A stretch of 64,000 bases of DNA from Psammoneis japonica (Eukaryota), in NCBI GenBank assembly GCA_008632985.1, contig QPGO01000118.1, positions 62,001 through 126,000 on the forward strand. The letters run 5' to 3'. Below, one piece after another: positions 3,775-62,970 of the stretch. Each line of letters opens with the position of its first letter. Positions within the stretch are counted from its first letter, which is position 1. Position numbers and translations under genes: made by a program. The notes beneath the pieces were generated by a model. It ran no database searches and was not told where the DNA came from. It was given only the letters and a program-made list of their open reading frames with translations.

Positions 3775-6687
3775 GATGCTCGTTCGGCCTCTTGAGGTGA
3801 TCTGAATGCAGGTGCCAAAACCAACTGAATGGGGAGTGGTGGGACTTCACTGGCGCAGCTGGCACTTTTGGCTGCCCAGCCGACTCTTGTTGCCAAAGCT
3901 CTTTGGAAGAATGAGAGGCAAGCAGCAAACTCGTGTGCCAGCTTGGTGCCATGTGTTCAGCGTTGGTGATGGGGAGAATGACCGACTTGCCATTGAGTCA
4001 TCAACTGGCAACGGGCCATCTGCACCCCCCCCTTGTTGGCCCACATGAGGCCAGCAACTTGCACTGCTTTGCTCACTCAGCCCCTCTTGTGGTGATCTGA
4101 ATCTGGGTGCCAGAGCCTGGCCAAATGACAGAGAAGAGTTGAGTGTCTGCAGTGTGGACCGAGGGGGCAGCAGCGCACTCCGCGGGATGCAGCAGAAAGA
4201 AGAATTCCAAGGTGGGAGACTGGTCATCATGTTGGCTGGTGCTTGTGAACTGGGGCGGTTGGTTGAAGATGCGGCATGTGGGATCCAAAAGAGGGTGGTG
4301 ACAGGGGCCAGCCGGTTGGGTGCCAGAGGGTCTTCTTCTTTCTTGTGGAAATGGATTTGGCGGGCAAGTCGGAAATCAATGTTGACTTGTTGGGGTGTGC
4401 AGCAGCATGGATCCAGGGGCCCCCCATTGCAGCAAATGTTTGGCCAGTTGAGTGCAGGGCACACTCGGTGGTTCTTGCCTGGATGATGGGGTTGCCCCTC
4501 CTCCTCTGGGTGCAATGATGCCAGTGCAGTGTTGGTGCAGCGTTGAGACTTGAAAGAAGACAACCTGGTCTGCGACATCTTGAAGCAGAGGGTTGATGGC
4601 CAGATTGATGCAAAATTGTCGCCATTTGTCCCAGCGGGTGTTGGAGGAGGAGGAGGCAGAAGGGGTGGTGCCATGGTGGGCAATGGTGCACTGCACAGCA
4701 CTGAGGTCACACAGGAGTGCAGTGCAGATGGCGGGGTCCAGAGTCACCAGGATGGAGTCTGTGGGGATGGTGAGTGTCAAAATGGCACAGAAAGGTGTGG
4801 CTGGACAATGACTGCAAGTGTCGTGAGGCATTGTCAGCAGCTGCTTCAAGCAGGCTCAGAAAGCAATCATCAAGGGAGAGGCAGCAGCGATGGCGGTGAT
4901 GCTGGCCCCGGTGGCGGAGGAGCTTGGAGGCTGCTTTCACTGTGGCAGTGGAGCCTTTGCATTGGCAGTGCTTGTTGGACAACCAGATGCTGATGCCACT
5001 GATGCTTGTCAGCGGCACACAAAACCAAAGCAAAAACAGATTTCACTTTTTTCATTCTCACCAAATTGTGGCCCAGCACTTTTGCAACCTTCATGATGCC
5101 AGCTCAATCTTTCAAACTGAGTTGCCACTTGTCAATTCTTTGTCATTGTTGTTCAACCTCCTGCAGAGCCAGGGAACCATGTCGCTCCACTTGACACATG
5201 TTTTTTTGTGAAAATCGACAGCACCACCACCGAGTTGTGACCAAGACCCACCGGCCCGTTTTGCGGTCGGCAGACACACATTTTTTCACACCACACCACA
5301 TTGACACCAACAGCTGCAATGATGTGATGATTTTGTTTTTGCCACTGGGACAGAATCACCATGACAGGGAAAGTTGCCAGTTTTGCACCACAGACTTCCG
5401 CACCAAATCCGCGCCACATCTGTTGTCCATCAGTGCTGTCAAATCTTTCCTCAAGTTGGAAGCATCCAAGCCATTGCTCGCTGAGAACAGCACTGCAGCA
5501 TGGAGTTGGCTTGGCTCACAAATTCAATGTCACTGGGACAGTGCTGCATGGGCAGGAGCGCTGCTGTGAGCCAACACAAATGGCTGGGTGCAATGATGGT
5601 GTTTGTTTGTTGGTGCCTCCCAAGTTTCTGGTGATTTCATTCCTTTTAGATGGCTGGCATGTTTGGAGCATTTTCCCCTGCCACCGCCAACAACGTCATT
5701 GAACAATCAACCATGGGATGAAATGAGTTCTGGCAAGTGAGTGTGCTGTCTTTCATGCTGTTTCTCTCTTCCAGCACTGCCGCATTTCTCACTTTTTTTG
5801 TCCAATTCATTTAATTGCTTCTTGCAGAGGTGGAATTTGTGCGTGCACCCAGCTCATTGCTTGCTGTCTCTGAATCACCATCTCATGCTCTGTGGCAAGT
5901 GCATCCAGTGTGTGCATTCTCTGCATCAACTCATTTTGTTTTTTCTCAACCTCTTTGTTTTGCAATGATGTCTGTTCCTTGTTCTGCAGAAAAATGATGC
6001 CCAGTTGGGTGGCAAAGAAGAGGGCACAGGGGTGCAGCACCATTGCTGTGACTGCTGCTGCTGGGGGTGTGGCCCCATTTGGGTGGTGACAAGAAGGTGT
6101 GCTGCCACTGCGACTGCCACAACTGCTGCTGTGGCTGTTTTTACTTGTGTCTCTGGTGGGGCAAAAACTGCTGTTGCTGTGACCACTGCGGCTGTGACTG
6201 CTGTGGACGGGGATTCCTTTGGTTGGTTGATGACAAGGGGACAAGGCGCAGCACCATGGTGGATGTCCCATGCACATTCTCAGTGTTGACTCTCTTTCTT
6301 GTTTTCTCAACCTGTTTGTTTTGCATTGACACTTGTCCCCGCAGCTGCTCCAACAGTCGGGTGACAAGAAGGGGACAGGGCATCACCGCGGCACTCCCAC
6401 AGTGAATGCTGCTGCAGCTGCAGCCATGGCTGTTGTTGCTTGCAATGCTGGTGGGGCAACAACTGCTGCCAACTGCTGCTGCTGTGACCACTGCTGTGCT
6501 GCTGCTGTGACAGTTGGTTGGCAAGAATGGGGCATGGTGTGATGCTGTGGTGGATGTCCCGTGCACGTTCTCTTTGTTGTTCATCAACATTTGCCTCTGC
6601 TGCTGCTGCTGCTGCTGCTGCAATTTCTGTGGTTGGGTGACAAGAAGGGGATGCAGCACCAGTTGGGCCATGAGAAAGGCACTTGGC

Positions 6688-6723
<36 letters not shown>

Positions 6724-9700
6724 GCTGCCACTTGGGACTGTGGTGGGGTGGCACATTTTCTGCCAAATTGTCAACATTGACATTTGTTGGTGGAAACACC
6801 CCACTCTCCACACCCATGGAACATTGCAAATGGGGCTTGTGCTGCACTCATGATGCTGACACCATCTGATGCCAAAGGTTTGCTTGATTGCTGCGACAAT
6901 GGATTGAGTCTGGACACCAAATTGGAGTGTGTCTCACAAATGACATGGTTTGTCCTGTGCAGGACCTGGTTTGCAATTGCCGTGCATCATTTTTGTCCAT
7001 TTGCTGTTGGATTTCTGCTGAGCATTGTGGCTGGGTGTCGTGCAGCCTCTGCTGGCTTGCTGCTCTCTGCTCCAGCTGGCAGTCAACAGGTGTTTGCTGC
7101 ATGGAATGAAAGGACAGCAGCTGAAATGGATCAAGCAACATCTTAACCTGCACACAGTGCTGCATGCAATGTCAGCCTGACTGTTTTTTCCAGATGGCAG
7201 CAATGGATGTTTTGGGATTCACTGCTGCTGCGGCAAGAGTCCTGCATTGACTGATCAGTCCACATCATCCTGCTTCTTCTTGTTTGACATTTTCTTGACT
7301 CTCCAAAGACATTTTCAAAGGCATCTCCAGTGCTCTTCTTTCTCCATTTTGGCCTGAACCCTGACAATGTCTTTGGCAAGCACACCCCCGCCCAGCACTG
7401 CAGGAAGAGAAGCACTGGGAACAGCAGGAAGAGTTGCTCAAATTCATGGTCTTTGCATCTCATGGAGCAAGCAATGGCGCCACCGCTTGGAAAGCCATTG
7501 CCAGATGACAGAGACTGGGAAGAATGTCTCATCTTCTTCTCTCTTGCCATCACTGCAAATGAAGACAATGGCCGCAGTTCATCAGCCACACATCCTCAGT
7601 TCCAAGGGGTTCACTCTGGTGGTGAGTTTTATGACATGTCTTGCCGGTGTCTCCAGCAGGAGCAACAAGCTTGCTGGGTGGATGGTGCATGATGCACAGG
7701 CCAGTGCCACTTGAGAAACTAAAATGGAGCATGTGGTGGTGGTCCAGATCATCATCATCACCATCAGCACACATTGGTTTGAGTTGATGCCTGCATGACA
7801 TGCACCCCAAATGCACTCAGCCTGCATTTGTTGAGTGGGTTCTTGGCCCAACTGTGGTGTCTTTGCACTCTTGATTTTGGAAGCTGCAAGCCTTGACTTG
7901 GGCAGCAGCAGCAGCCCCTTGTGCGTGATTCCTCCACACAAGAAGATGCCCAGCTGCACAAGGTGAGGAGGCACCAGCCAACCTGCAAAGATGACAAGGG
8001 AACCATCTGTGTGATGGGACTGATGCAAGCAGCACTCCATTGTCTTGGGATGGCTTTTGGTGGCTCATCCTGCAAGAAAGACAAGGGAGCCATCTGTGTG
8101 ACAGTGCAAGCACTCAGCAGTCTGGGGGCGGGCACAAGAGACTCTGTTGGGTCCAGGAGGAGGCAGCAACAACAGTGGTTGGGAAGGAAAAGCCTTGTCT
8201 TGGGCCAGTGCAGCCCCTTTTCTTTCTGATGTGATTGGCTTGCTTTGGTGACCCAGCCACCCCACTTGCAGAGGCAATGCAGGGAGCTTTCTGTGTGACA
8301 GCGCAAGTGCCCAGATGTCTTTTGCTGGCCATGGGTGATTCCATTGTGTCCCAAGAGAGCCAACAACAACCTTGGTTGGGGAGCAAAGGCTTGTCTTGTG
8401 TCAATGTGGCCCCTTTTCTTTTTGACATGACTGGGGGCTTCTTTGGCCCAGCCAACACACCTGTGCAGAGACCATGGAGTGAAGCAAAAACACATTCACT
8501 GTAGAAATGACAAAACACAGCTAGCACAAACACATTGCAAGCAACACACAGCCAATGCACTAGCATCTTAATGAGACAAATGAATGTTGCAGTTGTCAGA
8601 AATGTGCAATGTTGCAGAGCAGTCACAATTGCACCCTTGTCAAGAAGTTTCATTGACCATTGTTTCCCACTTGGAAGGTGGCATTGATTGTGAACGTGAA
8701 CTGAATCATTTCAAAACCATTGTGGTCACAATCTTGTCAAGACCAAACAAAGAATTAGAGTCATTTTCATTTGAGTGTCAAACCCCACTTGGAGTGTTGA
8801 AAAGATCATCAAAATTGCTTCATGCACAATTGATGAGCACTTGTTAAGAGCACAGGATTCTTGACAAGCAAGTGCAAGTTGTGAACAAGAGCCACAACAT
8901 TTTCCAGATGATGGCTCGTGAAAATGGCACTTGTTGTGCAAACAGTCCTGAGTCCATTTGAGGCCTTGATCAGCAGCCCATGCAGGAACAACTCAAAGTT
9001 GTGGGATGTGGAATGGTGTTTGGTGTCAGAAGTGCAGTGCTGACAGCACCATGACTGGCTGCATTGTGGCAGCTGGTGACTGTTGGCAGAAGTGGCACCA
9101 GCTTGTCAGTTCTTGGAAATTGTCCAGGATTGAGCAAAAGTTGGCGGCAAAACAGACTTGGTCATCCAATGTTGTGTGGAATGGTGCTTCTTGGAGCTTG
9201 GAAAACAACTCACATGAGTGGCACCAGATGCATGTGGCACAAACCATTGGCCAGGTTGATCTCAATGAGGTGGATTCAACCACAAGCCAGGTTGGCTGAA
9301 AGGATGCGTCACAGCAGCCAACCAAGTGTCCGGCCAAATTGCGTTAACTCTGCAAGTGCATTGGGATGTGTTGATGTGTTCATCATGCCGCAAAAGGTGC
9401 AGTCAACAATTGGGCATGGTCTGTGCCCATGTTGTGGCAGTGCTTTGATCAGGCAAAAATGCAGCCCTGGGATGTCCTTGTTGCATGGCAAGGTGGCACC
9501 ACCCAGAAACCTTTGTTCACCACATCTGCCATGTCTTTTGCAAGAACTCAATGTGTTTGCATGCAGACTTGTGTTGTCCCCTTGTGATGCTGCCTTCAAG
9601 CTCAGCAGCATTGGACCATGGATGATCAGCCACTGTGGCTGGCATGCCTTGGTGTTTGCAGCCTGTCACCATGCGGTGTGCTGTGTGTTGGGGTGCATGC

Positions 9701-9925
9701 TGGTCAGTGGTCCCCTGTTCCCAGTTTTGCCCTGCTGCTGTGCAGTTGCAACAAGCAACTGGGGCCTCTTGAGCAAAGGAGATTGGCATCACAAACACCA
9801 ACTCAGTCACCCAGTTTGTCAGCATGTGCTGATGCAGTGATGTCCTGACCCCACATGAAGTGGCAATGCTGCCTCTCTTTGACTCCACTTGCGGGGGTTG
9901 TGGATGCACAGGTCTGGTCTGTGCA
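3775..9925 (-). mobile_element. Degenerate DIRS/Ngaro-like tyrosine-recombinase retrotransposon relic (copy X1) with unassigned Gln-rich interior
   Basis: Minus-strand remnants in RT-RNaseH-YR order: RGQHKSACKHIEFL / RPCPIVDCTF / QFGRTL (~9700-9200), KGSTATVKAAS / ADNASR (~5000-4750), WDKWRQFC / GQTFAAMG / IDFRLARQI / FFFLLHPAEC (~4640-4140). Many frameshifts; TpA almost absent. Confidence 0.75.
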
Positions 9926-9929
9926 GAGT

Positions 9930-10537
9930 TGAATTGCACTGCAAACCATCTCTCTAAAAAGAATGTGTTGATTCAATTCAAGAACAACCCCAATCTTGAA
10001 CGCTTGTTGGCATGGGGTGCATGCATGATTTTCTCTCTGCACTCTGTTTTGTTTTCTTTGTCAAACTGCCACAAACACCGCCCTTTGGTCATGGCATGAC
10101 TTTTGTGTTTGGTGCTTTCCTCCACCGACTGACGACGATGACGAAACGTGTGATTGTTGGAATTCCCATCGAATCGCCTGGTGGCTGGATTAGGCCATGA
10201 CGGTGATGGCCTTGGTGTTGGGGATGATTCAAATGAAAACTGAGGGCTGCAACAAAACGACCATGACGTTGTTTGTAGGAATCGCCGCAGTGATCCATTG
10301 AGCTCGTTTGTGGGATTCATAAGTACGTCAGGACACTTGACGTGGCCTGTTGGCATTGTATTTGTTATGGCTACCCTTGCCGGCATTGTCGAGTTGGTGG
10401 CGTGTGCGTCGTTCCATTTGAGCGTGGGAGGTCATGTTTGGTATGATTTGTTTCTTCACATTGCCATGCTGGTGGCGCTCTTGCTGGCACCGTCTCCTGA
10501 AAATGGAACCAAGGAACCGAAACCGAAGGACGCGTAG
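9930..10537 (+). pseudogene. Membrane-protein gene copy 2 (5' half mutated, ~260-bp internal deletion)
   Basis: Aligns to 1900-2769; segment equivalent to ~2265-2525 is missing; 3' end nearly identical to copy 1. Confidence 0.85.
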
Positions 10538-10838
10538 CTTCGAATATATTCCAAAGTCATAACTGCTTGCACAGCCTCACATCTATTTTAATTTGCTATT
10601 CAGCACTATCCTCCTAAGCAGGCAATTCACTCTAGAATTCTGTGTCTGGCGGCTTGAGAGTGATAAATGATACTATTGTTTTTTAAGAATATACACAACT
10701 TTGTGGAATGCAAACATGTTGCATTTTCTTATCGCCCGTGGCTCGCCTTTACTCAAACAGAGCAGGACTCGAATGCCCAGCCCAGAGCAATCTCAATGAG
10801 AACAAGAGAGAACCTGGCAAGCGATCCGGGCTCGCAGA

Positions 10839-11321
10839 TTAGTTGATGGGCTGTTCGTTTCCATTGCCTTGCACATGGTGTGCTGGCCGTTGATGTCTCC
10901 TACGTCTCCTACGTCGTGCTCCTATAAGACGCATAAAGACCAAGATCCGATCTCCGTGCCGAATTCCGTACGAACGAACTAGGCGTTCTCCCACCAGCTG
11001 CTGTCCTCCGAAAAGCAGGCGCTGTTGATCAGCTGGAATACCATCAATATTCTGCATCGTTGCCATCAAATCATTTACCGTGTCGTTGTACCTGACAAAT
11101 GCTTGATATTTGCGATCTGTTGTGTTGCTGATCTTCACGTTGAAGCCCAACTGTGGGAGCCGCGCGCTCAGCTCTCTGTGTTCTTGTTCTACCTTCTTTC
11201 TGTTTTCTTGTTCTAGCTTCAGCTCTCTGTTTTCTTGTTCTAGCTTCTTGTTCTCCTCAAGGACCTCCAACATGGCTTTGTCGCGTGTGGCAGCGGCAAC
11301 AAAGCGGCCAAGATCTGTCAT
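10839..11321 (-). CDS. Coiled-coil + ubiquitin-like domain protein (copy 2)
   Basis: 483-nt CDS; I see only three substitutions relative to 3071-3553. Confidence 0.8.
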   Translation of the reverse strand: MTDLGRFVAAATRDKAMLEVLEENKKLEQENRELKLEQENRKKVEQEHRELSARLPQLGFNVKISNTTDRKYQAFVRYNDTVNDLMATMQNIDGIPADQQRLLFGGQQLVGERLVRSYGIRHGDRILVFMRLIGARRRRRRRHQRPAHHVQGNGNEQPIN

Positions 11322-11466
11322 GATTGCAACTCCTGTTCGACTTCTCTTGCGCGTCCAGTTCTTTTCTTGCGTTGCTGTATGGATGGATGCTAATGTTGTG
11401 TACCGTATTGTTCCTCGTGCGGCAAAGCGGCTGAAGTTCGGTGCGCGCACGCACGTGTGTCAGGCT

Positions 11467-12304: not shown

Positions 12305-14549
12305 TGAGGAGTCTATGCGTCGACCGTTCTTCGCGCGCGCGCTCGCACGCACCCGAAGGTCTCCTCATAGACTCTCGCGGAAGTAAGACGGACGATGTAC
12401 CAGGGTCGTATGTAGGCCGTTTGTTACGGTGCCGTTTTTCTGGACATGCCGCAAGCGCATCGTCTCATTGCTGTTATCGGCATGAACGACTCCCAAGGCT
12501 GTCTAGGGCTGGCACTGTAGAATGAATCTTTTGCAGCATTGGGACGTTTTGAGCACACCATGACAAAGCCCTGCAGTTGCACAACTGCTGCATGGCTCCT
12601 CATTCCATCATTCACAATCGGATGTGTTGACCCTTTTCTCTCGGCTCGATCGCGCTAGCCACACATCGAACCACGACCTGTGAACTGTCACGCCAGGTCA
12701 TTGAGCTGGCAGCAGTCCACCAGCAGTTGCCGCAGGAGGCCGAAAAGAGAAGGGAGGATGCAAGAAGTGAGAACATCCGTGACACAGGATTCAAGAGAGG
12801 CAACAAAATTGGAAACATCAATGCAAAAAACAGAAACATTCTCACCGGCAATTAACGCCAAGGAAGAGACACGACAGTGCCGCCGCTGAGCACTGAGAGG
12901 CGTGCCAAAGAATGCTGCTGAATCCCCACCAAGCCCATTGATCAGCCTGCGTTTTCGATCCACGCTGCGTCTCAAAGCAGGAGATCTTGCCAGAGGCGAA
13001 AACAAAAACTGCAATTGTTGAGTCACAGAAGCAAATTGTGAGCAAAATCACAACACCAACTTGCCAATTGGCCTTTGCACACATTCTTTTGTGTCTCATG
13101 TGTGTGTGTGCTTGTCGCTGCAACGGCATTTGTCTCATCCCATTGCTGGAGGCATTCACACTGTCGCGAACTGATGAAATCCTGCGCAAAGTGCAAGCCC
13201 CATTGAGTGAGTTTGAATGCCAACAATTAACAACACTGTCATGTGAGCTTGCCTCCTTGACTCAGTGTCACCAAATGAGCACAGCCAATGCACTCAAATC
13301 TGCCCAAGCGGCAAGAAATCGACACAACCGTCCAAAAATCTCCAAAAATGTCATGAAACAGTGACGCCCAACCAAAAATGAGACCCCAGACCATCTTTGC
13401 CTCAAATCTCAGAGCTGTGGTCAAACCACGCCTCATGCAGACACCAACAAACAACACCAAGGTGCTCCATGGACTGAGAACCTGCGTGACAACAAGGAAG
13501 AGCCCATTCCGTGAGTGAGCACATTTCTGGCAAAAAACACAAAGCCATTTGTTACAAACAACAGAAACAACGGTTGCGCCACAAGAAAGACAATGCCATT
13601 GCAAGCCAATGACGAAAATGCGCACAAATTTCCATGTCATAACTCACAGGGTGCAATGGAGCGGAGCATGCGACGACAATCAACGACACATGTCAGCACC
13701 TGCCGAAAAAGTGACGATTTTGCACTCAGTCAGTCTCGGGGATAAATCAATCAAATGTTTGCCAATTTTCTCTGTTCCAACACCATGGTGCGCTTCAACA
13801 GTGAGTGTCTGAACAACCACTGAATGGTGCAAGGCACAGCGGTCGATGCACCGATGAAATCGATCATCGTTGGAACGGCACATTTTCTGGCATGTTTTGT
13901 GTAGAAAGCTCTGCAGAGCATTTCGCAAAATCCAGGGAGGCATGGCAACAAATTTTGAGCCACCGTCCGTCCAGAAAACGCATCCGCAGCATGGCAAGTG
14001 CAGTCATGATGGCGGCATGGAAATCTGATTGGACAAATGACGTCAGCTAAGAACCTTGTTGTTCACAATGAGCAATGATGACATCATCCTCACCCCACCA
14101 TCTCCTGTCCACCCCGCCGCCCGCGCTGGCCGTGGCGATTTGCTGCGCCCCAACTCAAACTTCAAAAGAGAAACATTCACAAGCCCCAAGAGACTCAGCA
14201 AGACAACAACACATCATGACACACAAACAGCACAAACCACCCATGACAGCGGCAACTTTCGGACTGGCGAGCACAAAAATGACGCCATTGGAACCGCAGC
14301 ATTTTTGTCAGCACGTGTGTGTTGTTTCTCTTTTTGTTCAATGCAAGTGCGACCCTCTTGTGGGACAATTTCAGCAACTTTCAAGTGGAAAGTTTTGCAC
14401 CGTCCTTCTTGGGCCATTTGGTCCACCTGCTCTAAAATCATTTGACTCACAAATGACACCGTTCAATCCGCCATGTCTAAATTGCTCTGTGTGGCAGTTT
14501 CTGTGCACCCGGAGCCTTCGCACTTCAACCCACTTCCCTTGCTTGATGA

Positions 14550-16618: not shown

Positions 16619-17116
16619 GGTGTCTCAGATTGACACCATGGTGCATGAACCAAAGTGCAAAACCTTGGAGAAAGAAAATGCAAAATGTTGTGAGAAGCTG
16701 GCGCATGAGACAATCATCGACAACAACAAAACAACAATTGTTGAAACATTTGTTGGAACTTGCGCATTGAACATTTTGTCATGAACCAACACAATGGTTG
16801 AGCAATTGCTGAACAAATGCGTGCATGATTGCTGAACAAATGCACGACACAATTGCTGAACAAACATGCCACAATTGTTCAGCAATGCAACACGATCCAT
16901 CCCCCACATTCCAAAATGATGCTGCAGGCCAATCCACAACCGTTTGTTCAGTCTGCCGACGAGTGTTGTTGTCATCACTGATGGTGCCGCTGCCGCGGCA
17001 CTTGCCGCAACGATGTCTGAGCGAGCAGTGAGCAGGTGAGAGGTGCGAGCTGTTTGCCATCTCTTGACACAATGGCTCAAATTTTGATTGCAATCGACTG
17101 CAACCACCGACTGCGA

Positions 17117-17722
17117 TTGCGACCTCGGCACATTCCCAACAATCGAGTCTTTGCAATCGAGTTTGCAGTTGCAACTGCAATCAAAGTGGGGCCGATTGCA
17201 ATCGATCCTGGCAATTGGGCAACACTGGTTAAATCTGACAGTGAAATTACACGCCATTCACACGGAGAGAGCCGATTTTTGTGGAATTTTCAGCACCGAA
17301 ATGCGGCTCGCATCTCCTCCTTGGCATCCGTCCTGACGGGATGAAGGCTTTGTTTGTCGTGCAGTGGAATGTAAACACAACAACTCCTGTTGACCACTTT
17401 TTGGAGTTTGTCCTTTGCCATTGCGACCTCGGCACATTCCCAACAATCGAGTCATTGCAATCGAGTTTGCAGTTGCAACTGCAATCAAAGTGGGGCCGAT
17501 TGCAATCGATCCTGGCAATTGGGCAACACTGGTTAAATCTGACAGTGAAGTTGCACGCCATTCACACGGAGAGAGCCGATTTTTGTGGAATTTTCAGCAC
17601 CGAAATGCGGCTCGCATCTCCTCCTTGGCATCCGTCCTGACGGGATGAAGGCTTTGTTTGTCGTGCAGTGGAATGTAAACACAACAACTCCTGTTGACCA
17701 CTTTTTGGAGTTTGTCCTTTGC
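17117..17722. repeat. Tandem duplication, 2 x 304 bp
   Basis: Near-identical units starting TTGCGACCTCGGCACATTCC at ~17117 and 17421. Confidence 0.9.
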
Positions 17723-19938: not shown

Positions 19939-20055
19939 GAGCATCAAGGTGGAACGGGAAGTTTTCGACCTGGCGGTCGCTTCTCGGGACGCGGTCGACA
20001 CTGACCCAATGAGCTTGAAGAGCTGTCGTCCGAGTGTGTCGCTCCTGATTCTTTT

Positions 20056-34025: not shown

Positions 34026-34029
34026 GAGT

Positions 34030-52891: not shown

Positions 52892-54688
52892 TCATCTTGC
52901 GTTTCTCAACTCATGTCGCTTCCTTGCATTCAAATAAGGCGATCCGAACAGTTCATCCTTTTGGTGTCGAGACGTCGTGTGACCATCATAGACATGCCGT
53001 GTCAGATAGAGCGCGGCCACACTTGTCCCCAAACATGTGAGACACAGCGTCGCCGTAATGATATACGATAATTGAAAACAACCAATCCCATAACAAGTAA
53101 TGTCATCCATTTTTGCATCCGCAGGATCAATATGTGCCTCGTAAACGGCACTCGTGACAAAGTCGGAGATCACCAAGGTCCCGACGGCACTCGTAAATCC
53201 ATCATAAAACATGTAATTTGCTCCATGATTTGTCACACCAAAGACTTCACCAATCACTAACACCATCAATGGCCATACCATTCCAAACGCCGTCCCCGCC
53301 AGCACAACGCCAGTCACAAACGCCCGTCTCGTGATTGCCCAAGCCAAAGTCGAATGCGCCAAGACTCCAAAAGCGGATGCCACTATAAGAAATACGGGTC
53401 TCGGTAAACCATGATCTATTCCGCATTGACGGATATTCCATGTGGATGCCCACTCTGAAACGGCTCCGGCAGCAACACGAGCCGCAGCCTGGGCCACACT
53501 AAACATGGCGAGACAAGCCGACGCGGCCCGAGACGGAAAGTCGAGAGCCTCCACCATTTGACCCATATTGTTGGTCATGATTGTACCAGAGCCCACCAAA
53601 ATAGTGCACGTCCATAACAAGAGCCAAGCCTGGGCGGTTTGCATGGTTTGAACGAGGGTATAATCTTGTACAGGATGGGGTGCTGGCGGTTTTATCAACG
53701 CTTGTGACTCTACTTTGTCTTCGCTTTTCACAGAACTTTCACGTTGTCGTTCACTCTCATTTATTGTTGACGCCGAGGGGGCTCGTACATTTAGCCACAG
53801 AAGAGACGAGATTGGTCCAAACCATGCCAAGATGATAAAGAGAGCTCGAACGAAATGAGGGCCTTGGTCTTCTGAGCTTTCTTCCGCAATAATCTCATCT
53901 ACATTGTCGGGTAAGGGCTCAAAGAGAAATATGGCACTCGTTCCCACCACCAAGAGTGCCAGAGCAAACAAGCCACAGTAGACGACTCGATAATGCGTGG
54001 GGGTGGCGACTTCTCGCACATGCGCCAATTGTTGCTTCTCGGGCAAGAGCAACACAGCAGGGAAAACAATGCAAATGATTGACAGCACTGATGCCATGGG
54101 TAAGAAATTCAAGTCAGACGCTTGTTTAGGTGCAATGGCATCAAACAAGCAAGAATAAGCCCCGGCTCCCAAGCCAACGTAACCCTTGGCCGCTCCCACA
54201 GCGGAACCTTTACTGCCACTCCCACAACAAACCACAATGGCCTTGAACAAGCTTCCAATCACGAGAGAATTAGACATAAAAATAGCAACACCCAAGAGCG
54301 ATAATGTCGGTACTGTAATGTGACTTGATGTTGACTTTGCTTCAAAATATCGTGCCGCCAACCAATACAGAAGCAACGCAATCGATTCCAAAATGCCGCC
54401 CACAATCATTGCAATCTTGATTCCCCACCTGTCTACCGCAAGACCTGGGATCCAACTCAGCAGTCCAGAACAAAAATTGGCAGAGGAAATTGTGTTGAGC
54501 TGTGATTGAGTCAGATGCAAAGCGGTCTTGAGTGTCGATCCAAACAGTCCAAAGGCATAGGTCGGACCTCCTGTGGCGAGAGCCGCAGAAAAGCAAGTCA
54601 CCAAAACGGGAACGTTTGTTTTTGATGACGTCTCGCTACTTTCTTCTACAACTACAAGGGACCCATAAGAAGAGTGTTCTGCTTTCAT
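52892..54688 (-). CDS. MFS transporter, nodulin-like/NFD4/Mch1 type
   Basis: YAFGLFGSTLK, GLAVDRWG, GSAVGAAKGYVGLG, NNMGQM, EVFGVTNHGANY, CYGIGCF. Confidence 0.88.
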   Translation of the reverse strand: MKAEHSSYGSLVVVEESSETSSKTNVPVLVTCFSAALATGGPTYAFGLFGSTLKTALHLTQSQLNTISSANFCSGLLSWIPGLAVDRWGIKIAMIVGGILESIALLLYWLAARYFEAKSTSSHITVPTLSLLGVAIFMSNSLVIGSLFKAIVVCCGSGSKGSAVGAAKGYVGLGAGAYSCLFDAIAPKQASDLNFLPMASVLSIICIVFPAVLLLPEKQQLAHVREVATPTHYRVVYCGLFALALLVVGTSAIFLFEPLPDNVDEIIAEESSEDQGPHFVRALFIILAWFGPISSLLWLNVRAPSASTINESERQRESSVKSEDKVESQALIKPPAPHPVQDYTLVQTMQTAQAWLLLWTCTILVGSGTIMTNNMGQMVEALDFPSRAASACLAMFSVAQAAARVAAGAVSEWASTWNIRQCGIDHGLPRPVFLIVASAFGVLAHSTLAWAITRRAFVTGVVLAGTAFGMVWPLMVLVIGEVFGVTNHGANYMFYDGFTSAVGTLVISDFVTSAVYEAHIDPADAKMDDITCYGIGCFQLSYIITATLCLTCLGTSVAALYLTRHVYDGHTTSRHQKDELFGSPYLNARKRHELRNAR

Positions 54689-54874: not shown

Positions 54875-56330
54875 GTGACCGAGGGATTTTTCCTCTTTTT
54901 TGAACACTCTCTAGCTAGCAGCGTTTGTGGTCGAATGCAATTACAGATGCACTCACGTCAAGGAGTGATTCACATCTCACTTGTCGGCACCTCAACACAG
55001 TTTGTTTTTGAGCAACATCGCAATGAAAAAGTCTTGTTTTGTTGTTTCGTCTCGGTTTTCTTTTTTGGCTCGGTGGGCTCTTGGTTGACTCAGTTGTTTC
55101 TCTCACCAAATTTTAAAAATGATGGGAAAAAGGCTTGTGATGGTGTTGGACACATTTTGAATGCACACAAAAGGCAGTGTGCTGCTCTGGACAACCCGGG
55201 AGTTGAGAGCACACAGCAGGCGTGTGTGCGAGGCAGGCACCACAGACCAGAGATGACACCCGACTTTCACGCCACTTTGGACTTTCATCAGAGTTTTGAT
55301 GCAGCAGATGATGTGAACACATCAAGCTGATTTTCTCATTGGTTTGACAACCCTGTTGTTGCAATGCTCATTTCAAAGCTGTCAAAAAAGACAAACATTG
55401 CAGCAATGGTGTGCACTCTCCGGCTGCTGTGCCCCCGTGGCCTCTCTCATCATCTCAAAATCCTCCTGTGCACTCTTGGCTTTGTTGGCCTCCACTCTTG
55501 TGTGCAGATGGCACAACTGAGGCACTGACCAACATGTTGAATGTCTGGCTTTCTTGGGCCCCAAAACCTGGATGCTTGGACATTTTAACAAGGCTCTGGC
55601 ACGGGCAAAGCAAGCTGAGCTTCAGCGCTGCCATGTTTTTCATTGTTCACATTCTTCCATGCAATGTTGTCATCTGCATTGTTGGAGTCAATGCAGCCCA
55701 ACAAAATGCTGGAACCACCAAATCATCTCACTTTGCATGTGAAATGGCTGGCACGCAGCCCACAACCATGGCACAGAAGATGTGGCATCTCACAGCAACC
55801 ACAAATTCAAGGTCAAATTGCTGGAAACCCTTCACACCTGGTGCCAGTGGCAAAGTCTGGCATGCCCACAAAAAACATTGTTTTTTTTGCTTTCTTGTTT
55901 CACCAAGGACAACCACCACATGGATCCAAAGTTGGCCAACCTTGTTTGACCACAAGCACAGATGACAAAATGCTGTAGCTGGCATGTGTCACACCCTGAG
56001 AATGCACAAACTTTCTTGCTGATGTTGCAGTGGCTGTGTGTTGAGTCTCAGTGGGATGTGGAAAGTCACACCAGATTTTGGTCGACAATGGGGATCGCCG
56101 TGCTGCAAGTCACTGTGGCAATTTGTAAAAGCTAAATCTTTCTAAAGCAATGTGCAACGATCATCTGCTGCCATGCTGACAGTTCCTGAGCAACCACGTC
56201 CACAGAGAGACAGAAACGCGAAAATCTTTAAACAACCAGACCATAAGGTGTCACATGGGGTGGACAATGAGTTCGTTGTCAATGCAGATATGTACAGAAG
56301 GAAAGCCTCTAATAAAAGCAACAACTATGT
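54875..56330. mobile_element. Decayed TE-like relic (family unresolved)
   Basis: TpA/CpG-depleted block between two intact genes; GKKACDGVG resembles the HGKxxCDGxG motif of some DDE transposases. Confidence 0.4.
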
Positions 56331-56366: not shown

Positions 56367-57419
56367 TTACCGCTTGCTTTTGATCTTCGAGTACATGGTT
56401 TCATTGACGAAGAACGATGGACTCAACTTCAAGAAAGCAAACTCAACACCTCCTGCTCCATTCATATAATTTGCTTCCTTGCTTGTAATTACATAGCCCG
56501 CATCGTGCAAGTCATAGAAGAAACTTTTTGCCTCCGGCATTGGTGCATTATGTGTCTCGACCAATATTTGTCGAAGATCATGTTGGAGCCACTGTTGATA
56601 AGTGAACCATTCGCACCATTCACAATCAATCTTGAAGACGTCGATTGTTCTATTCTCGTGGCCTAACTCGACAATAGTATCCTTCAGTGTCTTGAAAGCA
56701 TGCCCCCTTTTCGTCTCTTTGTATTTTTTCGCCTGTTCTTCTGTTCCTAATCCCCACGGGTGAAAAGTCGCGTATCCCTCCAGTGCTTTCTTAAAGTCAC
56801 CATTGCGTTTGTTGTGTGTGACCATATCAAATGTGTGGATTTCGCAATGCGGTCCGATCTCGTCTCGTATTCCCTTTTCAAACATTACGTTTCCATTGGA
56901 ACCAATGGAATATACAAGACAATCTTTCTTCTTGGCAAGTCGGTGAGGGTCGCACACCCATTTCGGGCCGTCAATTTCAGAAGTCGTTGGAATCCGCTGC
57001 ATTAGTGGACAATGAAATTCTTCTTGAAAATGGGCTCCGTTCCAGTGGCTGGACATTTTCAAAGCTGGGACCTTTCCGAAGTCGGTGCCTTTGTTTGAGT
57101 GCCTGTTCAAGTTTGGTCCGTGATTTGGAAAGAGGCGAGCATGGATACGCTGTGCCACCTCCCACTGTTCATCAGAAATATCATCAAAAAATCCGTAGCT
57201 CTGGTCAAAGGCAAGTCGGTAGCTCAAACGTGAAGACTCCGCGACGTCACTACGTGCAATACTTGGAAAGCGGTTGGGCACGTCTGTATCGATCGTCGCT
57301 GAATTGTTTCGAAACAAAGCATTCAAAAGGTACAATTCGAGCGCTACACAAGCAAAAAAGGTAAGACTCCCAAAGGCAGCAAAGCTACGAAAGCAGGAAC
57401 GGCTTTTCCCAGCTTCCAT
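56367..57419 (-). CDS. Methyltransferase-domain protein (Methyltransf_22/METTL24-like), N-terminal TM anchor
   Basis: DGPKWVCDP, CLVYSIGSNG, CEIHTFD, IDVFKIDCEWCEW, QILVETH. Confidence 0.85.
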   Translation of the reverse strand: MEAGKSRSCFRSFAAFGSLTFFACVALELYLLNALFRNNSATIDTDVPNRFPSIARSDVAESSRLSYRLAFDQSYGFFDDISDEQWEVAQRIHARLFPNHGPNLNRHSNKGTDFGKVPALKMSSHWNGAHFQEEFHCPLMQRIPTTSEIDGPKWVCDPHRLAKKKDCLVYSIGSNGNVMFEKGIRDEIGPHCEIHTFDMVTHNKRNGDFKKALEGYATFHPWGLGTEEQAKKYKETKRGHAFKTLKDTIVELGHENRTIDVFKIDCEWCEWFTYQQWLQHDLRQILVETHNAPMPEAKSFFYDLHDAGYVITSKEANYMNGAGGVEFAFLKLSPSFFVNETMYSKIKSKR

Positions 57420-57649
57420 GGCTGCTTCAACTTTCTGTCGCGTGTCCGGAGCAAACGAGCAACTGCTTTTTGCTGTAGTCGTTTAATACTCTGGGTCCGG
57501 AACTAAGTACCTCAAAGCAACAGTGGGGCCAAAGAGAAAAAAAATGTGAAAAAGTCACCAGATGTGCAAGAGCTGCGACATTTTTTTGCATCGTCCCTTT
57601 TACTGCATGTAACGAACAAAAGGGTTCAAAATTTCAAATTCAACGGATA

Positions 57650-60600
57650 CTAGACCCTCATCGACGATTTAACATAGCATGGAGCACAGTGACGTCACCT
57701 CGCGAACCCCGTTTGCCGTGTTGGACGACACCAACAATGGCGACAATGGCGGTTCCAAATCGACGCCCACGAAACCCCCTGCTAAAAGAGCAAGAGTGGA
57801 GTCTCGAGAACTTTCCCTTCATACGAGTAAGGAAGTACAAGCAAAGAGATTGAGCGAGAAGACGTGCTGTAATTGCACCTTGGTGGGGTCAACTTGCCAA
57901 ACACGTGGTTGCTCATGCTGCAAACATGACCGACCATGCACCAACTGTGTTTGCTTCCATAAATGTAAGGACAAGGAAGGACTCCCAACATGTGGCTTAA
58001 GTGGCAGGCATTTGGACAAGAAGCAACGGAAGCTTCAACCCTCCCCGGAATCCAGTCCACTTCAGCCAAAAGTTTGTCATTCATCAATGACACCCCTGAT
58101 GCTGCCGACAAACAAAACAAAAACAATGCCAACACCAAAGCCAACAAGGAAAACATTGCTCCCTTTTTTTCAGCTTTGCTTCTCAGTGTCCTCTGATTTC
58201 TTTGACAACATTTCACGATGGGGGGCACTCCCTGTGATCAGGACGAGTTGGCTTGACAAAGCCCGGATCTGCTTTGCAGTTGCCTTCATCACCCACAGAG
58301 CCACTTGGCAGGGGGTCACTGAAACACACCTTGGTGTGTGGTCATCCTCTTGTGTTTGATGTTTGCCACCCCCTGTGAGCTGTTCAAGCACAAAGCCAAA
58401 ACCTTGCTGGACATGGTTGGCAAAGCGGGGTTGGGAAAGTTTGTCTGAAGAGGAAGACCTTCATGGTCACTCCTCTGGAGGCATCTCATTTAATTGGGAA
58501 ATTGTGGCCAGCATCTCAAAAGAGAAGAAAAACTCTGGGCTGAATGGTGCTGCCCTTGATGTCTTCCATCCACCAAGATGCAAAGGGCACTGGGGTCATC
58601 TGAAGGCGACCAATCTGAGAAAGGTGCACCCCAGCAGTCACATCTGCACTGATGCATTCTTGAGTTGCTTGTTGTGCTTGGTTGTCTCAGTGCACATCTG
58701 GCGGCAAATGTTTGGGAATCAAAGGTGCAAAGCAAGTTGCACAAAGGTGGGAAGATGGGAGCACCCAGTGAGGGTCATGCTGTTGTTCTGAAAGCAACTG
58801 ATGTTTGGTTTTGCACCCCTGTTGTGGACATTTTGAAGGTGTTGGTGGCCTGCTGGACAAATGGGAGGGTGACCAAGTTGCCCTCTTGGAGTGGCATTGT
58901 TGGCTCTTGGAAGCCATGGAAAGAAAGGAAATTGTGCTGCAAGATCTGCTGGGTAATTGGCAGCAGAACATCAGAAGGCACTGGACTTCAAGACTCCAAG
59001 GAAGTGAAGAGACTGTCCTTCAGATGTCAACCATGCAATGTGGCAGGCAAGGCAGCAAATCTGCTGGTGGCCAAGGTTTCTCTGTGCATCAGCCCCCATC
59101 TCAATTTGTGGAGGATCCAAGGGTGTTGGGAGAGGCACCTCTTGGCAAGTGGAACATTGGCTGTTGGGTGGCCAGCAGGGCAGTGATGGATGTCAACACA
59201 TTCTTTGTGCAGCAGATGGCATCAACCAACTGAAACTTCAGAAGTGTGACCTTGTTGGATTGCATGACAGACCAAATCAAGGTGACAAGAGCAGGCCAAC
59301 TGTCAACCGGCATGATGCCAAACTGACTCCTTGGCACATTTGACTCACAGCTTAGGTCAGGACTGCACCGGATCCTAGGAGCCTCTCACAAAAGGTCAGC
59401 TCAAGAGGCCTCCTCCATCATGTTTCAAGCAAGCAATGGGGGGGCTTGGTCAAAGAATGGGTGGCAGGCTGCCACAGCCAGTCTGGCTTGAAGGGTTGTG
59501 TTTGGAGGTGAGGGGCACTGTCCCTCCAACAAGCGGTGGTGCATCAGCAACCTCTGCTGAGTTGGAGGCCTTGAGAATGTGAGTGTGGAAATTGGGTGGG
59601 GCACTTGGTGAAATCAATGCCAAGGCAGACACCAGTGCATTCAAGTTCTCCAGCACAGGGGTGCTGTCTTGTGTGTCACAGAGTGTCAAGCATTGATGAC
59701 CCCCAGCACTTTGGATCAAGACCCTCCTGTGGGTGAGCTCAGGAGGCCTCCTCCATCATGTTTCAAGCAAGCAATGGGGGGGCTTGGTCAAAGAATGGGT
59801 GGCAGGCTGCCACAGCCAGTCTGGCTTGAAGGGTTGTGTTTGGAGGTGAGGGCACTGTCCCTCCAACAAGTGGTGGTGCATCAGCAACCTCTGCTGAGTT
59901 GGAGGCCTTGAGAATGTGAGTGTGGAAATTGGGTAGAGCACTTGGTGAAATCGACAGAAGGTCATGAAGTGGAGTTGGGACAAAGCACCATTGAGAAAGC
60001 AGTTGCAAGAGATCTCAGGACTTTTGTGGATGATTTGTGACAGAGTCTGAGGCTCACCTCAGCAAAGAAAATGCTTGGCAAGCAGGGCAATGAATGGCAT
60101 CTTGCCTTCTGTGCAGCACCTGCCTCAGCATTCAGAGTGTTGCCCACCACCCCTCTTGAGAGCCTGTGGGATCCATTTTCAGAGTTTTGGAGGAGGAGCT
60201 GACAGAGAGGGTGTCCCAAGCAAAATGAGACAAGGCAAAGGTTGTGATCAGAGAGCCACTTTGAGAAGCTCTGTCTCAAGAACTCAGCTGCTGGGTGTGG
60301 ACCTGCAGCTCTTGGACTTTGGCAATCTGTGGCCTGCAAGTTTCTCACACTCTTTTTTCCAAAAGAACTTCAATGGCAACTTTTAACTCATGGAGACCAC
60401 CAAATCAGCAAGCAAACAGATGGCTGTGCAACATCTGGAAAGGAGTTTGGGTTGTCAGCTGCAACACATTGTGAACAAGTGTGGGGAGTCACGCTGGGGG
60501 CATTGCACAGGGAAGAAAATGGAGGGGCCAAGTGCACCCCACACCATGCAAACTGTGTGTGCCTTGTGTTTCCTCAGAGGCCTTGAAGTGATCAGCTGGA

Positions 60601-62200
60601 TTTTGGTGCTGGTCAAACCTGTCTGCATTGCTGTTCATTCTCATGAGATTGATGTTGCTCCGTGAGGCTTTGGCGGTGCATCTGAAAGGGCTCAGGGCCC
60701 TTGTTTTTGAAGCCTGGCTGCTCAGTGTCACACCACACACTTGGGGCAAGGATGAAAAGCCAGAGTTGTCCAGGTGGAAGGAGATTGCCAACATGGGCAA
60801 ACTCAATTGAGGTGCTTGGCAAATTGGGTGACCTGTTGGGATCTGGCTGAGTTCATGTTTTCAATCAAAGACAACTCAGTGGCAGAAGCAGTGCTCAACA
60901 AGGGCACTTCTTTGAGCCCAAAGCTCTTTTGGCACATGTCATCTCCCTTTGGTCCATCTGAACAAAGCACAGCTTCGTTTTCTGGCTGGTGCATGGGGAT
61001 CAGATGCCAGGTGCTTCTTGACGAAATGAAGGGTTGGGGAGCAAATCCAGAAATCTGCCCCCCTTGCTCCAAGAATGAGCACTGATGCTGTGTGTGAATC
61101 TTTTTTTTTGGGTTGCTTTTTCTGTTTGTCTGCCTCAGCCCCTGGCATGATTTGGAAGCTTTGCTCTGCCCACCACCAAAATAAAGGAGTTCTGGCATTT
61201 GGTTGAGGCAAGAGCAAACAAGGCATGGCAGCAGCAGAGTTTGGTGGCAAATGGTGCCTTTGCATCTGCAGCAACCCATTTGCATCCTTGTCTTTGGATG
61301 TGTGAGCAATTGAAAAAAACTTCCCTGGAGATGATGCTCCAATGCTGTCAGCTGATCAGTCACAAAGGAGCAAGAGTTGGGGCTGAACAACCCACTCACA
61401 GGGGCGCAAAACAACACTGCACCATCACAATTTTTCAGTGTTGTTGGAGCCATTTCTTCAGGGTTGCTCATGGTGTGACATGAGCTTCAAGTCAGTGGAT
61501 CTTGTGCTGGTGTGCCCAGCAGGGCAAAATTCTTTGCACACACAGGTGGCCACTGATGTCCAGAGTTTCAACAGGGGTGGAAGCAAGAGATTGCATGATC
61601 CCCAGCAAGTTGTGCTGGGAGCTTCCAGGGTCATGAGCAAAGGGGCCATGAGTGCAAAATTTTTGCTGGGGTCTCTTCATCCCAGGCCATCCCCTCAGCC
61701 AATGTTGAGCTGCAAAACTCCAATTTTGATGTGGTGTCCCACCACAGCAATGCTTTGAAGAATTTGACAAGACTGGCTTTGGAGGCTGCACTTCTTGGCC
61801 TGATTCCATGCTCTCAGAAGACATCATTGACCACATTGATGATGCACATGACACCCAGTTGGGGTCTCTGGCTTGACAACTGTCATGGACACATCAGCAC
61901 CCAGTCAAATGCTTCAGTTGACAGCATTCTTTCCTTGAAAGCTGCTGCTTGTCTTCCACAAGCAATGCAGCCATGAAAACAATGGTGGTTTGTCAAACCT
62001 GACAACAGCACATTGTCAAGTTCAATGATTGGCATTTGAAGGTTGACAAGGGCCATTTGCACACAGGTCCAACACCCCCTGATGGGGGGCAGAGACACTT
62101 GCAAGTGTCAGCAGGGGCAGTCAGATGCGCCACAAAATGACACTGGCAAAGTGTGGGAAAACTGCAAAATCATGAGCTGTCAAAAAAAAGATCAAACCAA
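57650..62200 (+). mobile_element. Degenerate CRE/Ambal-like non-LTR retrotransposon
   Basis: Cys-rich N-terminus (CCNC..CQTRGCSCCK..CTNC) then decayed, correctly ordered remnants: ATWQG, SKLHKG..PSEGHAVVL, RHLLASG, EAWLLSV..ELS, DPQQV, SVDSIL..RAI. Confidence 0.55.
59398..59952. repeat. Direct repeat of ~215 bp (59398-59615, 59736-59952)
   Basis: GAGGCCTCCTCCATCATGTTTCAAGC...GCACTTGGTGAAATC present twice. Confidence 0.9.
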
Positions 62201-62404
62201 TGACCCACTCTCAAGAACCCCTCTCTGATGTGATGGAATTTGCATGTCAGAGGCAAATCTTGGCTCCCTCAATTTGAGTGCTTTGGGAAACATGGGTCAT
62301 GTGATCATGAAAATCAAACTGCACACAAATTTGGGTGTGCATGAGTTTGCCAAATTTTGGGCACAAATTTGGACATTCCTCCCTCTGTCACTTGAGATTT
62401 GGTC

Positions 62405-62970
62405 ACAAAAACAAACCACAGCTCCCTCTTCAGCAAGCCTCCAATGACCACACAAGAGCATTGATGAACACAAAAACTGCAAGAACACCCAAGAGTGATG
62501 ATGTCAGCACTGTGATGTGACTTGATGTTGACTTTGGTGCTTCAACATGTTGTGTGCTGCCACCAGCTGGTGCCCACAACTGCCACAATCTTGCCCCCCT
62601 GTCTCCTGTGCTGCAAGACCTGGGGCATGTCCATCTCAGCAGTCAAGCAAAAAATTGACAGCTGGCGAAGAGAGAGCTGCAGCAGAAAAGCAGCAGTGGG
62701 TGTTGCCAAGACCCCCACCACAAGTGCTTGCTTTCTCTTTGGCACAATCTCACCACTTTCTTCTTCAACAACAATGGACCCGCAAGAAGATTTTCTGTTT
62801 TCATGTTCTCCATTCGCTGTTCTAAAAGATCCCTGCCGGCACAAGGTGTCATTGCGCTGCGATTCTCGCTTTTCGTTTTCAGGTCTGTAGGGCCCTACAG
62901 CAAGTAAGTGGTGCTTCATAGACGGACAGACCTAAGATAGATTTAACCATCGCGGGACTGGACTCGTGAC
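62405..62970 (-). pseudogene. Mutated duplicate of the 5' end and upstream region of the MFS gene
   Basis: Aligns with ~54220-54870 (e.g. TGTGACTTGATGTTGACTTTG, TAGACGGACAGACC); SSCGSIVVEEES vs SSYGSLVVVEES. Confidence 0.85.

Follow-up and report, generated by a model that had tools for sequence, protein, structure and literature searches.

The 64,000 nucleotides analysed here, called the window throughout, come from the diatom Psammoneis japonica (GenBank assembly GCA_008632985.1, contig QPGO01000118.1, positions 62,001 to 126,000 of the forward strand; coordinates below are those of the window). They contain host genes together with a Ty3/Gypsy retrotransposon, a hAT-like DNA transposon remnant and repeats of unassigned class, in which nearly every 5'-TpA-3' dinucleotide (TA) has been replaced by TG or CA. 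The window holds 1361 TA by dinucleotide count, and their spread is very uneven. Two-state segmentation of TA content delimited six depleted segments (3632-10275, 12519-21115, 21446-24802, 27302-34403, 54943-56125 and 57999-62822) with a summed length of 31,707 bp, about half of the window; trimmed borders were used for the values given for single blocks. The observed/expected ratio (o/e) of TA is 0.02-0.09 in these segments and 0.56 in the background, which bears out a preliminary description, made from the letters alone, of TA-poor transposable-element blocks with TA-rich flanks. Intervals of 1 kb contain 0-16 TA inside the blocks, mostly 0-8, the interval with 16 being the one that includes a later, unmutated insertion described below, and 21-55 outside them. 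The five longest TA-free runs measure 1934, 1641, 1150, 1036 and 1002 bp, and at the background density of 38 TA per kb the chance of 1934 bp without TA is P = 1e-32.

The dinucleotides that replaced TA can be read from the composition of the blocks. Across the six segments the o/e of TG and CA is 1.5-2.0, and the TA and CG lost per kb are roughly balanced by the TG and CA gained. Relative to a background of 38 TA, 56 CG, 72 CA and 76 TG per kb, the first block (X1) has 2, 12, 105 and 132, that is, 80 fewer TA and CG and 89 more TG and CA, and the block at 12.6-25.3 kb has 6, 48, 95 and 98, that is, 40 fewer and 45 more. G+C is 0.47-0.57 within the blocks and about 0.48 outside. The edges are sharp, spanning under 100-300 bp, and the adjoining host genes are TA-normal. 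The last two blocks, B4 and B5, are separated by an apparently intact gene of the Methyltransf_22 family (56370-57482; Pfam E = 8.8e-68) whose TA content is normal, and the domains thus end sharply there. The earlier view that depletion is limited to the blocks holds as regards their discreteness, but not at the right ends of X1 and its second copy X2, where depletion runs on for about 300 bp.

The region 18391-24229 is a Ty3/Gypsy long terminal repeat (LTR) retrotransposon on the plus strand, as identified by its LTR ends, target-site duplication, polypurine tract and protease, reverse transcriptase, RNase H and integrase order. Its LTRs are 164 bp each and its target-site duplication 5 bp: the 5' LTR (18391-18554), with TG...CA termini, is preceded by the copy CACCA at 18386-18390, and the 3' LTR (24066-24229), just after the polypurine tract, is followed by the copy TGCCA at 24230-24234. 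The gag and protease part (18555-21098; Asp_protease_2, E = 2.8e-4) has open reading frames (ORFs) at 18757-19935 and 20005-21099, of 393 and 365 amino acids with 2 and 0 tyrosines, and there are 12 TA over 18391-21098. The reverse transcriptase, RNase H and integrase part (21495-24065) matches RVT_1 (7.6e-9), RT_RNaseH_2 (4.8e-14), RT_RNaseH (4.7e-13) and Integrase_H2C2 (2.3e-6), and at 21732-21743 it has HVDD in place of the YxDD box. The two halves of the element have TA o/e of 0.07 and 0.04. Between them, at 21099-21494, lies a 396-bp insertion with terminal inverted repeats, resembling a miniature inverted-repeat transposable element (MITE), which is unmutated (14 TA, o/e 0.51; 26 CpG, CG o/e 1.19); other Gypsy copies join 21098 directly to 21495. 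This island had been missed in the preliminary description, which also drew the block on to about 25300, whereas its end lies near 24450-24800.

The Gypsy element is inserted into an older element, of which 12657-18390 (minus strand; 33 TA, o/e 0.09; CG o/e 0.72) and 24230-24450 (no TA in 219 bp) remain. An ORF of 524 amino acids on its minus strand (14553-16124) has 18 homologues without any Pfam domain, and Pfam searches of this ORF and six homologues returned one sub-threshold chance match only. The predicted structure of the best homologue (P0121; 40% identical, pLDDT 70.8) had the Hermes hAT transposase at Foldseek ranks 1-11 (E = 6.7e-7 to 1.4e-4; TM-score 0.54-0.61 on the target), the next match having E = 0.14, and a language-model search gave the same lead. 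The modelled fold of this homologue thus supports a hAT-like DNA transposon as the probable identity of the older element. Within 14547-17145, contigs that match exactly and contigs about 83-85% alike are equally deep, at 29-36, and a near-exact contig (4 differences) over the unmutated 10384-10872 has a depth of 66.7; such a pattern may arise in a diploid from a hemizygous insertion or from two diverged haplotypes. The depleted blocks also contain young tandem duplications of 97-98% identity, at 17112-17426/17416-17730 and 59394-59615/59732-59952.

The remaining blocks are of unassigned class. X1 (3714-9954) has 13 TA (o/e 0.035; CG o/e 0.19), in agreement with the rough dozen counted by eye beforehand, and X2 (27302-34057) has 20 (o/e 0.048; CG o/e 0.20); they are two copies, 87-90% identical, of a 6.2-6.8 kb repeat. 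A six-frame read-through of X1 gave no Pfam domain. Summed over contigs, the depth of X1 is 110-2067 per bin; elsewhere, contigs that match or nearly match have about 30-67. Around 6600-7000 of X1 and in the matching part of X2, long single-residue runs (Cys, Ala, Gln, Leu, Ser) appear in different frames and indicate trinucleotide microsatellite arrays of the GCA/GCT/TGC type inside a TA-free repeat. B4 (54943-56125; 3 TA, o/e 0.037) is depleted of both TA and CpG, and its two ORFs (178 and 205 amino acids) have no Pfam match. B5 (57999-62822; 7 TA, o/e 0.023; CG o/e 0.08) gave no Pfam family in its three plus-strand frames, its minus strand having been scanned for ORFs of at least 120 amino acids. 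The assignment of all blocks to transposable elements stands for the Gypsy and hAT-like elements; X1, X2 and the plus frames of B5 have no recognisable transposon protein domain, and what supports it there is high read depth.

To the right of X1 and X2 lie copies of a ubiquitin-like gene region that is present in triplicate (A, 1914-3645; A', 9944-11420; A'', 34047-35435) and has a mosaic history. In the first 350 bp or so A' closely resembles A'' and shares 82.6% identity with A; in the remaining 1.1 kb its identity is 97.5% with A and about 84% with A'', a pattern that suggests gene conversion between A and A'. Depletion extends about 300 bp into the start of A' (9955-10275, plus strand) and to about 34403 in A''.

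The direction of change is established by the proteins. A sequence without TA is unable to encode tyrosine, and the Gypsy Pol was compared with 70 homologues of at least 700 amino acids, a column being taken as conserved at 80% or more; 36 of the 247 conserved columns differ in the window. All 11 conserved tyrosines are changed, nine to cysteine (TAY>TGY) and two to histidine (TAY>CAY). The three Leu>Pro changes are all to CCA codons, as expected from CTA, and in two Thr>Ala changes and one Ile>Val change the altered A directly follows the T of the preceding codon. Arginine gave way to Cys, His or Gln in 7 of 20 columns, which are changes of the CpG type, while columns of Ala (13/13), Glu (11/11), His (9/9), Gln (8/8), Trp (7/7) and Met (6/6) are all unchanged. 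Among second-position adenines that follow A, C or G (Lys, Asn, Glu, Asp, Gln and His codons), a single A>G is seen in 2 of 66, so that loss at TpA far exceeds that at other adenines. A comparison with 60 homologues, in which the first 60 query residues derive from the MITE-like insertion, gave 14 tyrosine columns, with 10 changes to Cys, 3 to His and 1 to Val, and three of four conserved tyrosines of the hAT-like ORF became His or Cys.

Nearly all differences between the window and contigs of other genomic copies are transitions. Among 40 of the 1,724 differences, eight have TA in the other copy where the window has TG or CA, all at 13.1-14.4 kb; seven have CG in the other copy, two pairs are TG/CA doubles, and none of the nine that fall in X1 restores TA. 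A fragment of a host gene provides a further polarised example: the right end of B5 (62410-62554) repeats, in converted form, the 5' part of the MFS gene nearby (54226-54354), and the 25-nt pair at 54296 and about 62492 that had been singled out before is exact, reading CG>TG, TA>TG, CG>CA, TA>CA and TA>TG. Other adenines are rarely involved: the LTR pair has collateral A>G changes on the same strand at a distance of 1-3 nt from a converted TpA, and so does one copy of the 17112-17426/17416-17730 tandem duplication, which carries TA>TG plus a second A>G 3 nt upstream. Hence the change is from TA to TG or CA, is specific to TpA and is confined to the mobile-element blocks, as had been proposed.

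Conversion of a given TA depends on the adjoining base. We compared the 94 TA that remain in the blocks with 1234 in the window background and 6221 in unmutated relatives. TTAA makes up 26 of the 94 survivors, against 35 of 1234 in the background (P = 7e-16) and 453 of 6221 in the relatives (P = 3e-9), while ATAT, ATAC/GTAT and ATAG/CTAT together account for 1 of 94 as opposed to 405 of 1234 in the background. Scaled survival falls from 0.78 for TTAA through CTAA/TTAG (0.23), GTAA/TTAC (0.12), CTAG and ATAA/TTAT (0.07 each), CTAC/GTAG (0.06), GTAC (0.01) and ATAG/CTAT (0.007) to 0 for ATAT and ATAC/GTAT. A model with one factor, the 3' neighbour of the edited A (2.9 hits for T, 2.0 for C, 1.3 for G and 0.15 for A), fits all ten classes (chi2 = 6.5 with 6 df, compared with 269 with 9 df under a uniform rate), although a factor for the base two positions upstream would, by symmetry, describe the survival data just as well. 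The order is thus TAT > TAC > TAG >> TAA, with TTAA surviving, and the ranks are firmer than the survival values, the ancestral composition being approximated. Gains of product tetranucleotides over background were discarded as a measure, being too confounded by ancestral composition.

Taken together, we consider it highly probable that these blocks record a domain-targeted, DNA-level conversion of TpA to TpG or CpA, of the type reported in Bigelowiella natans and here carried to saturation in diatom transposons. The direction of the change, its TpA specificity, its seat in DNA, its confinement to domains, its dependence on the adjoining base and its independence of CpG decay are established by the data given here. 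The process acted on chromosomal DNA, converting T:A to C:G at nearly every 5'-TpA-3' within discrete domains of mobile or foreign origin; it struck both strands after integration, each TA becoming TG or CA according to the strand hit. Its domains in the window are the Ty3/Gypsy element, the hAT-like transposon hosting it and three or four repeats of unassigned class, with edges reaching a few hundred bp into the flank and with contents converted whatever they are, a host-gene fragment included. Tyrosine codons, including that of the YxDD box, are removed along with ATA, TTA, CTA and GTA codons and TATA- or AATAAA-type signals, so that elements are killed by missense changes without becoming AT-rich. 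As for the chemistry, we lean, at slightly less than even confidence, towards an enzymatic route in which a nucleic-acid deaminase, recruited to silenced DNA, turns adenine into inosine, which is then read as G.

The alternative that fares best is directed at thymine: enzymatic modification of the thymines of TpA in silenced domains, for instance TET/JBP-type oxidation to 5-hydroxymethyl- or 5-formyluracil, which would mispair with G at replication and yield T>C. By strand symmetry it fits every sequence result equally well. Dinoflagellate DNA carries 5-hydroxymethyluracil with a preference for TpA and TpC, and mispairing with G is a property of 5-formyluracil; nothing in the analysis pointed to such a modification in diatoms. 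The one polarised hint in favour of a rule on the 3' side of adenine comes from tyrosine codons preceded by T, both of which became TGY, and these are two sites only. We regard the thymine route as improbable, if clearly the strongest of the rivals to adenine deamination.

A second alternative, raised in the preliminary description, would tie TA loss to CpG methylation: T:G mismatches at methylated CpG would recruit mismatch repair with a Pol-eta-like polymerase, whose misincorporation opposite T at WA motifs during patch synthesis makes A>G changes at nearby TpA. X1, X2, B4 and B5 did lose CpG and TpA together (CpG o/e 0.08-0.29), and the occasional collateral A>G beside a converted TpA would suit a patch of this kind. 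Decay of methylated CpG yields the same products, TG and CA, and is present in these four blocks; it is nevertheless a separate process, since the Gypsy/hAT block largely keeps its CpG (o/e 0.72-0.90) with TA o/e of 0.04-0.09. The same decoupling is seen in Tyr-poor Pol homologues: P0058 and P0114 keep tyrosine in 3 of 17 and 4 of 16 columns, yet arginine in 14 of 15 and 15 of 15. Conversely, related Gypsy loci recovered from metagenomes with P0058 as the query, 31 in number and not including P0058's own locus, are all TA-normal (o/e 0.48-0.98) with none TA-depleted; several have CG o/e of 0.02-0.2, and such CpG-poor relatives in other organisms keep TA at o/e 0.6-0.8. The objection that intact family members might be equally TA-poor finds no support in these relatives. 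TA gone with CpG kept, and TA kept by CpG-poor relatives, separate TA loss from methyl-CpG repair, and the two are distinct activities, as had been suspected. Two further results speak against a WA-motif polymerase: ApA, which WA also covers, is not depleted (61-91 AA per kb against 73), and the near-complete erasure of TpA stands against the 2 of 66 other adenines changed. We accordingly give patch repair little credence, less than the thymine route.

The two X copies were rejected as a polarised pair. They differ at 14 TA-versus-TG/CA sites, 94 CpG-versus-TG/CA sites and 59 CA/TG doubles, TA loss predates their split, and CpG decay can explain most of the 59 doubles. The converted states that X1 and X2 share indicate that X was converted before the copies separated.

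The LTRs place the change in DNA. As the two LTRs are identical when an element integrates, states at which they disagree arose afterwards, and the Gypsy pair has 16 differences in 164 bp, all of them transitions. These include four clean CA-versus-TG doubles and three CG-versus-TG sites; CAC opposite TGT fits an ancestral TAT with A>G on either strand, and TTGG opposite CCAA, with a CpG site, fits an ancestral TTAA. Both LTRs keep six CpGs and one TA (in TTAG). From the six shared and three half-lost CpGs, simple arithmetic predicts about 0.2 CA/TG doubles by CpG decay alone, and the doubles thus descend from TA that was resolved separately in each LTR. The target-site copies, CACCA and TGCCA, show the same CA/TG discordance in sequence that the element's RNA never contained. 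Conversion is also found outside any retroelement: in the hAT-like DNA transposon, in the MFS gene fragment at the edge of B5, and in the flank of about 300 bp past X1 and X2, where TA>TG and CG>TG changes are common to A' and A'' and paralogue A (1914-2264) keeps its TAs at the converted sites. The change thus occurred in DNA after integration. It follows also that the divergence of the Gypsy LTRs, being almost wholly due to editing, is no measure of age.

Against this background, A-to-I editing of transposon RNA by an ADAR-like enzyme, fixed by reverse transcription and reintegration, is very unlikely. What favours it is a sense-strand bias in Gypsy pol: over 21495-23135 (plus strand) the TG:CA count is 188:120 (1.57), as compared with 0.84 in 14 unmutated relatives, all of which lie below 1, and a model based on context alone predicts a split of 46:42. 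The excess of Tyr>Cys over Tyr>His (9:2) points the same way and is not significant by itself (P = 0.07). However, RNA editing would leave the LTRs matching at edited sites, and it does not account for the abundant CA products or for the discordant target-site copies and the converted DNA transposon, flank and gene copy, which together exclude it as the main route; the B. natans mutations described below likewise occur in integrated DNA during clonal growth. At discordant LTR sites TG is mostly in the 3' LTR and CA mostly in the 5' LTR. For the DNA-level process preferred here, the bias in this one element may mean that the non-template strand is edited preferentially, in connection with transcription. 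At a scale of 400 bp, no strand-coherent domains of TG or CA were found beyond background (standard deviation 0.144 versus 0.176).

Loss of tyrosine is not peculiar to this contig. When the whole library was searched with the reverse transcriptase, 6 of the best 150 representatives had 0.6% tyrosine or less, among them ORFs with none in 699 and none in 424 amino acids; the median of the 150 was 3.5%, and no other fell below 1.85%. These six Tyr-poor Pol ORFs come from NCBI, ENA and Logan records, on contigs of up to 123 kb, and may belong to the same or to other species; the Tyr-poor P0058 is from JGI. The weakest of the alternatives, that there was no mutation at all and that the blocks reflect an assembly or sequencing artefact, a modified base misread as G or C, or horizontally acquired DNA intrinsically free of TA, is scarcely credible: although the sequence was found, among the runs listed, in three runs of one study, possibly the assembly's own source, and in no RNA run, three contigs from a public run agree with 2.4 kb of a block at every position (14547-15099, 15072-15823 and 15983-17145), TG and CA products are intermixed at distances of tens of bp along one strand, unlike a strand-wise misreading, most converted states are common to X1 and X2 through descent, Tyr-free Gypsy Pol ORFs occur in NCBI, ENA, Logan and JGI records, and a Pol with no tyrosine and an HVDD box cannot be an original functional state.

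Several points nevertheless weigh against the reading we favour. Not everything repeated is hit, and a trigger by duplication, implied when the blocks were first called RIP-like, is not borne out: the triplicated A region keeps its TA (beyond the first 300 bp, A and A'' have diverged ordinarily by 125 transitions and 112 transversions without TA bias), the 396-bp MITE-like element is untouched in spite of a summed contig depth of 151,721 in its bin against about 30-67 for single-copy pieces, and the segment at 14.8-16.8 kb is mutated although its contig depth corresponds to one or two copies. X1 and X2 gained few further TA losses after their split, 14 against 94 CpG sites. The neighbour survival takes the window background and unrelated Gypsy loci as stand-ins for ancestral composition. 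An A>G on one strand is a T>C on the other, and sequence cannot separate adenine deamination from a thymine-directed mechanism. ADAR favours a 3' G, and the tRNA targets of ADAT have G, C or A at position 35, so that a preference with 3' T best and 3' A worst is unlike either. Finally, the supporting sequencing run may consist of the assembly's own reads, and the diatom case is drawn from a single 64-kb window.

Among long-known systems, repeat-induced point mutation (RIP) of fungi converts CpA (or another CpN) by C>T, CpA becoming TpA, makes DNA AT-rich and creates stop codons. The process seen here resembles RIP of ascomycetes in being a defence-like, dinucleotide-specific transition at the DNA level that can saturate mobile elements, with sharp edges and some leakage into flanks. 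It is, however, its mirror image: TpA becomes CpA or TpG, G+C rises slightly, TAA and TAG stops are removed, and TpA is destroyed in the blocks where C>T would have created TpA and AT-rich DNA. RIP is triggered by duplication, a dependence that is not seen here, and it relies on a cytosine-methyltransferase-like protein and a premeiotic stage. APOBEC enzymes act on C in single-stranded cDNA and leave G>A on one strand, and ADAR acts on double-stranded RNA with a preference for a 5' U or T. AID/APOBEC and ADAR share with the present case context-dependent transitions directed against mobile or viral nucleic acid, and differ from it in that integrated DNA is the substrate here, on both strands and with DNA transposons included; the 3' preference of T>C>G>>A also departs from that of ADAR.

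The preliminary description took the process to be one not yet described. However, a TpA-only A>G/T>C hypermutation, together with the proposal of an ADAT-like enzyme, has been reported for integrated viral DNA of the chlorarachniophyte Bigelowiella natans (Mettrop et al., April 2026, bioRxiv 10.64898/2026.01.13.699255). According to the main text of this preprint, 231 of 302 nuclear mutations in mutation-accumulation lines fell in integrated giant-virus and virophage regions, and 230 of these 231 were A>G or T>C, all at TpA; they arose episodically in integrated single-copy DNA during clonal growth, with 11 of the 15 lines affected, and their rate per site and generation was about 6e-7, some 1000-fold over background. 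The same source reports 124 clusters of windows poor in TpA and rich in CpA and TpG in the B. natans genome, an enrichment of reverse transcriptase and DDE domains among low-TpA genes, an ADAT2-like deaminase put forward as a hypothesis and, in its discussion, the 5' U preference of ADAR (bioRxiv 10.64898/2026.01.13.699255).

By analogy, we infer that the diatom blocks reflect the same kind of process. As far as the preprint's main text goes, both cases consist exclusively of A>G or T>C changes located at TpA of integrated DNA, with TpG or CpA as the product according to strand, and both occupy discrete nuclear domains of foreign or mobile DNA with a footprint of TpA depletion and CpA and TpG enrichment (bioRxiv 10.64898/2026.01.13.699255). 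They differ in host, a diatom (stramenopile) here and a rhizarian there, and in target, with LTR and DNA transposons and unclassified repeats here and a giant virus and a virophage in B. natans. They differ also in saturation, TA o/e being 0.02-0.09 here as compared with a Rho of 0.45 in the region of B. natans derived from a nucleocytoplasmic large DNA virus, and in background TpA, 3.8% of dinucleotides here and a reported 6.0% there; a live rate is available for B. natans only. Our literature searches, in so far as the sources were accessible, found the process in this preprint alone; the passages retrieved from a paper on diatom retrotransposons (PMC2806351) and from two on the Phaeodactylum epigenome (PMC9998398, PMC4504042) make no mention of TpA loss in transposable elements. 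The words 'diatom', 'flanking' and 'trinucleotide' are absent from the main text of the preprint (bioRxiv 10.64898/2026.01.13.699255), relative to which the neighbour rule with TTAA spared, the proof from LTRs and target-site duplication of action after integration, the decoupling from CpG decay, the spread into flanks and the possible sense-strand bias are new.

If the signatures of diatoms and Bigelowiella share a mechanism, a targeted T:A>C:G defence would operate in two distant and ecologically dominant protist lineages, to whose substrates the window adds class I and class II elements and flanks. It is conceivable, though on balance we doubt it, that TpA editing is an old and widespread genome defence of the stramenopile, alveolate and rhizarian (SAR) eukaryotes, at least of Rhizaria and diatoms, carried out by a dedicated DNA enzyme with the preference T-A-(T>C>G>>A) that is recruited to silenced domains and perhaps favours the non-template strand. 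Such a system would functionally mirror fungal RIP and edit adenine in DNA naturally, driving elements to complete loss of TA, and its enzyme would target A:T pairs of chromosomal DNA in a sequence-specific way; to our knowledge, no characterised eukaryotic system provides a natural editor of this kind. For annotation, 'genes' of such genomes that are free of TA, have long ORFs and lack tyrosine will lead gene prediction and the dating of transposons astray.

A few minor observations complete the description of the window. No Rfam family matched anywhere in it at the gathering threshold, and the sequence is complete except for a lone N at 37006. Two adjacent genes encoding MYND-finger proteins (39512-40609 and 41005-42516), 42% identical in protein sequence, form a tandem paralogue pair. 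The Gypsy Pol is 57-58% identical to its best homologues, and its named relatives, like those of a PP2C encoded in the window (55-62% identical), are all from diatoms.

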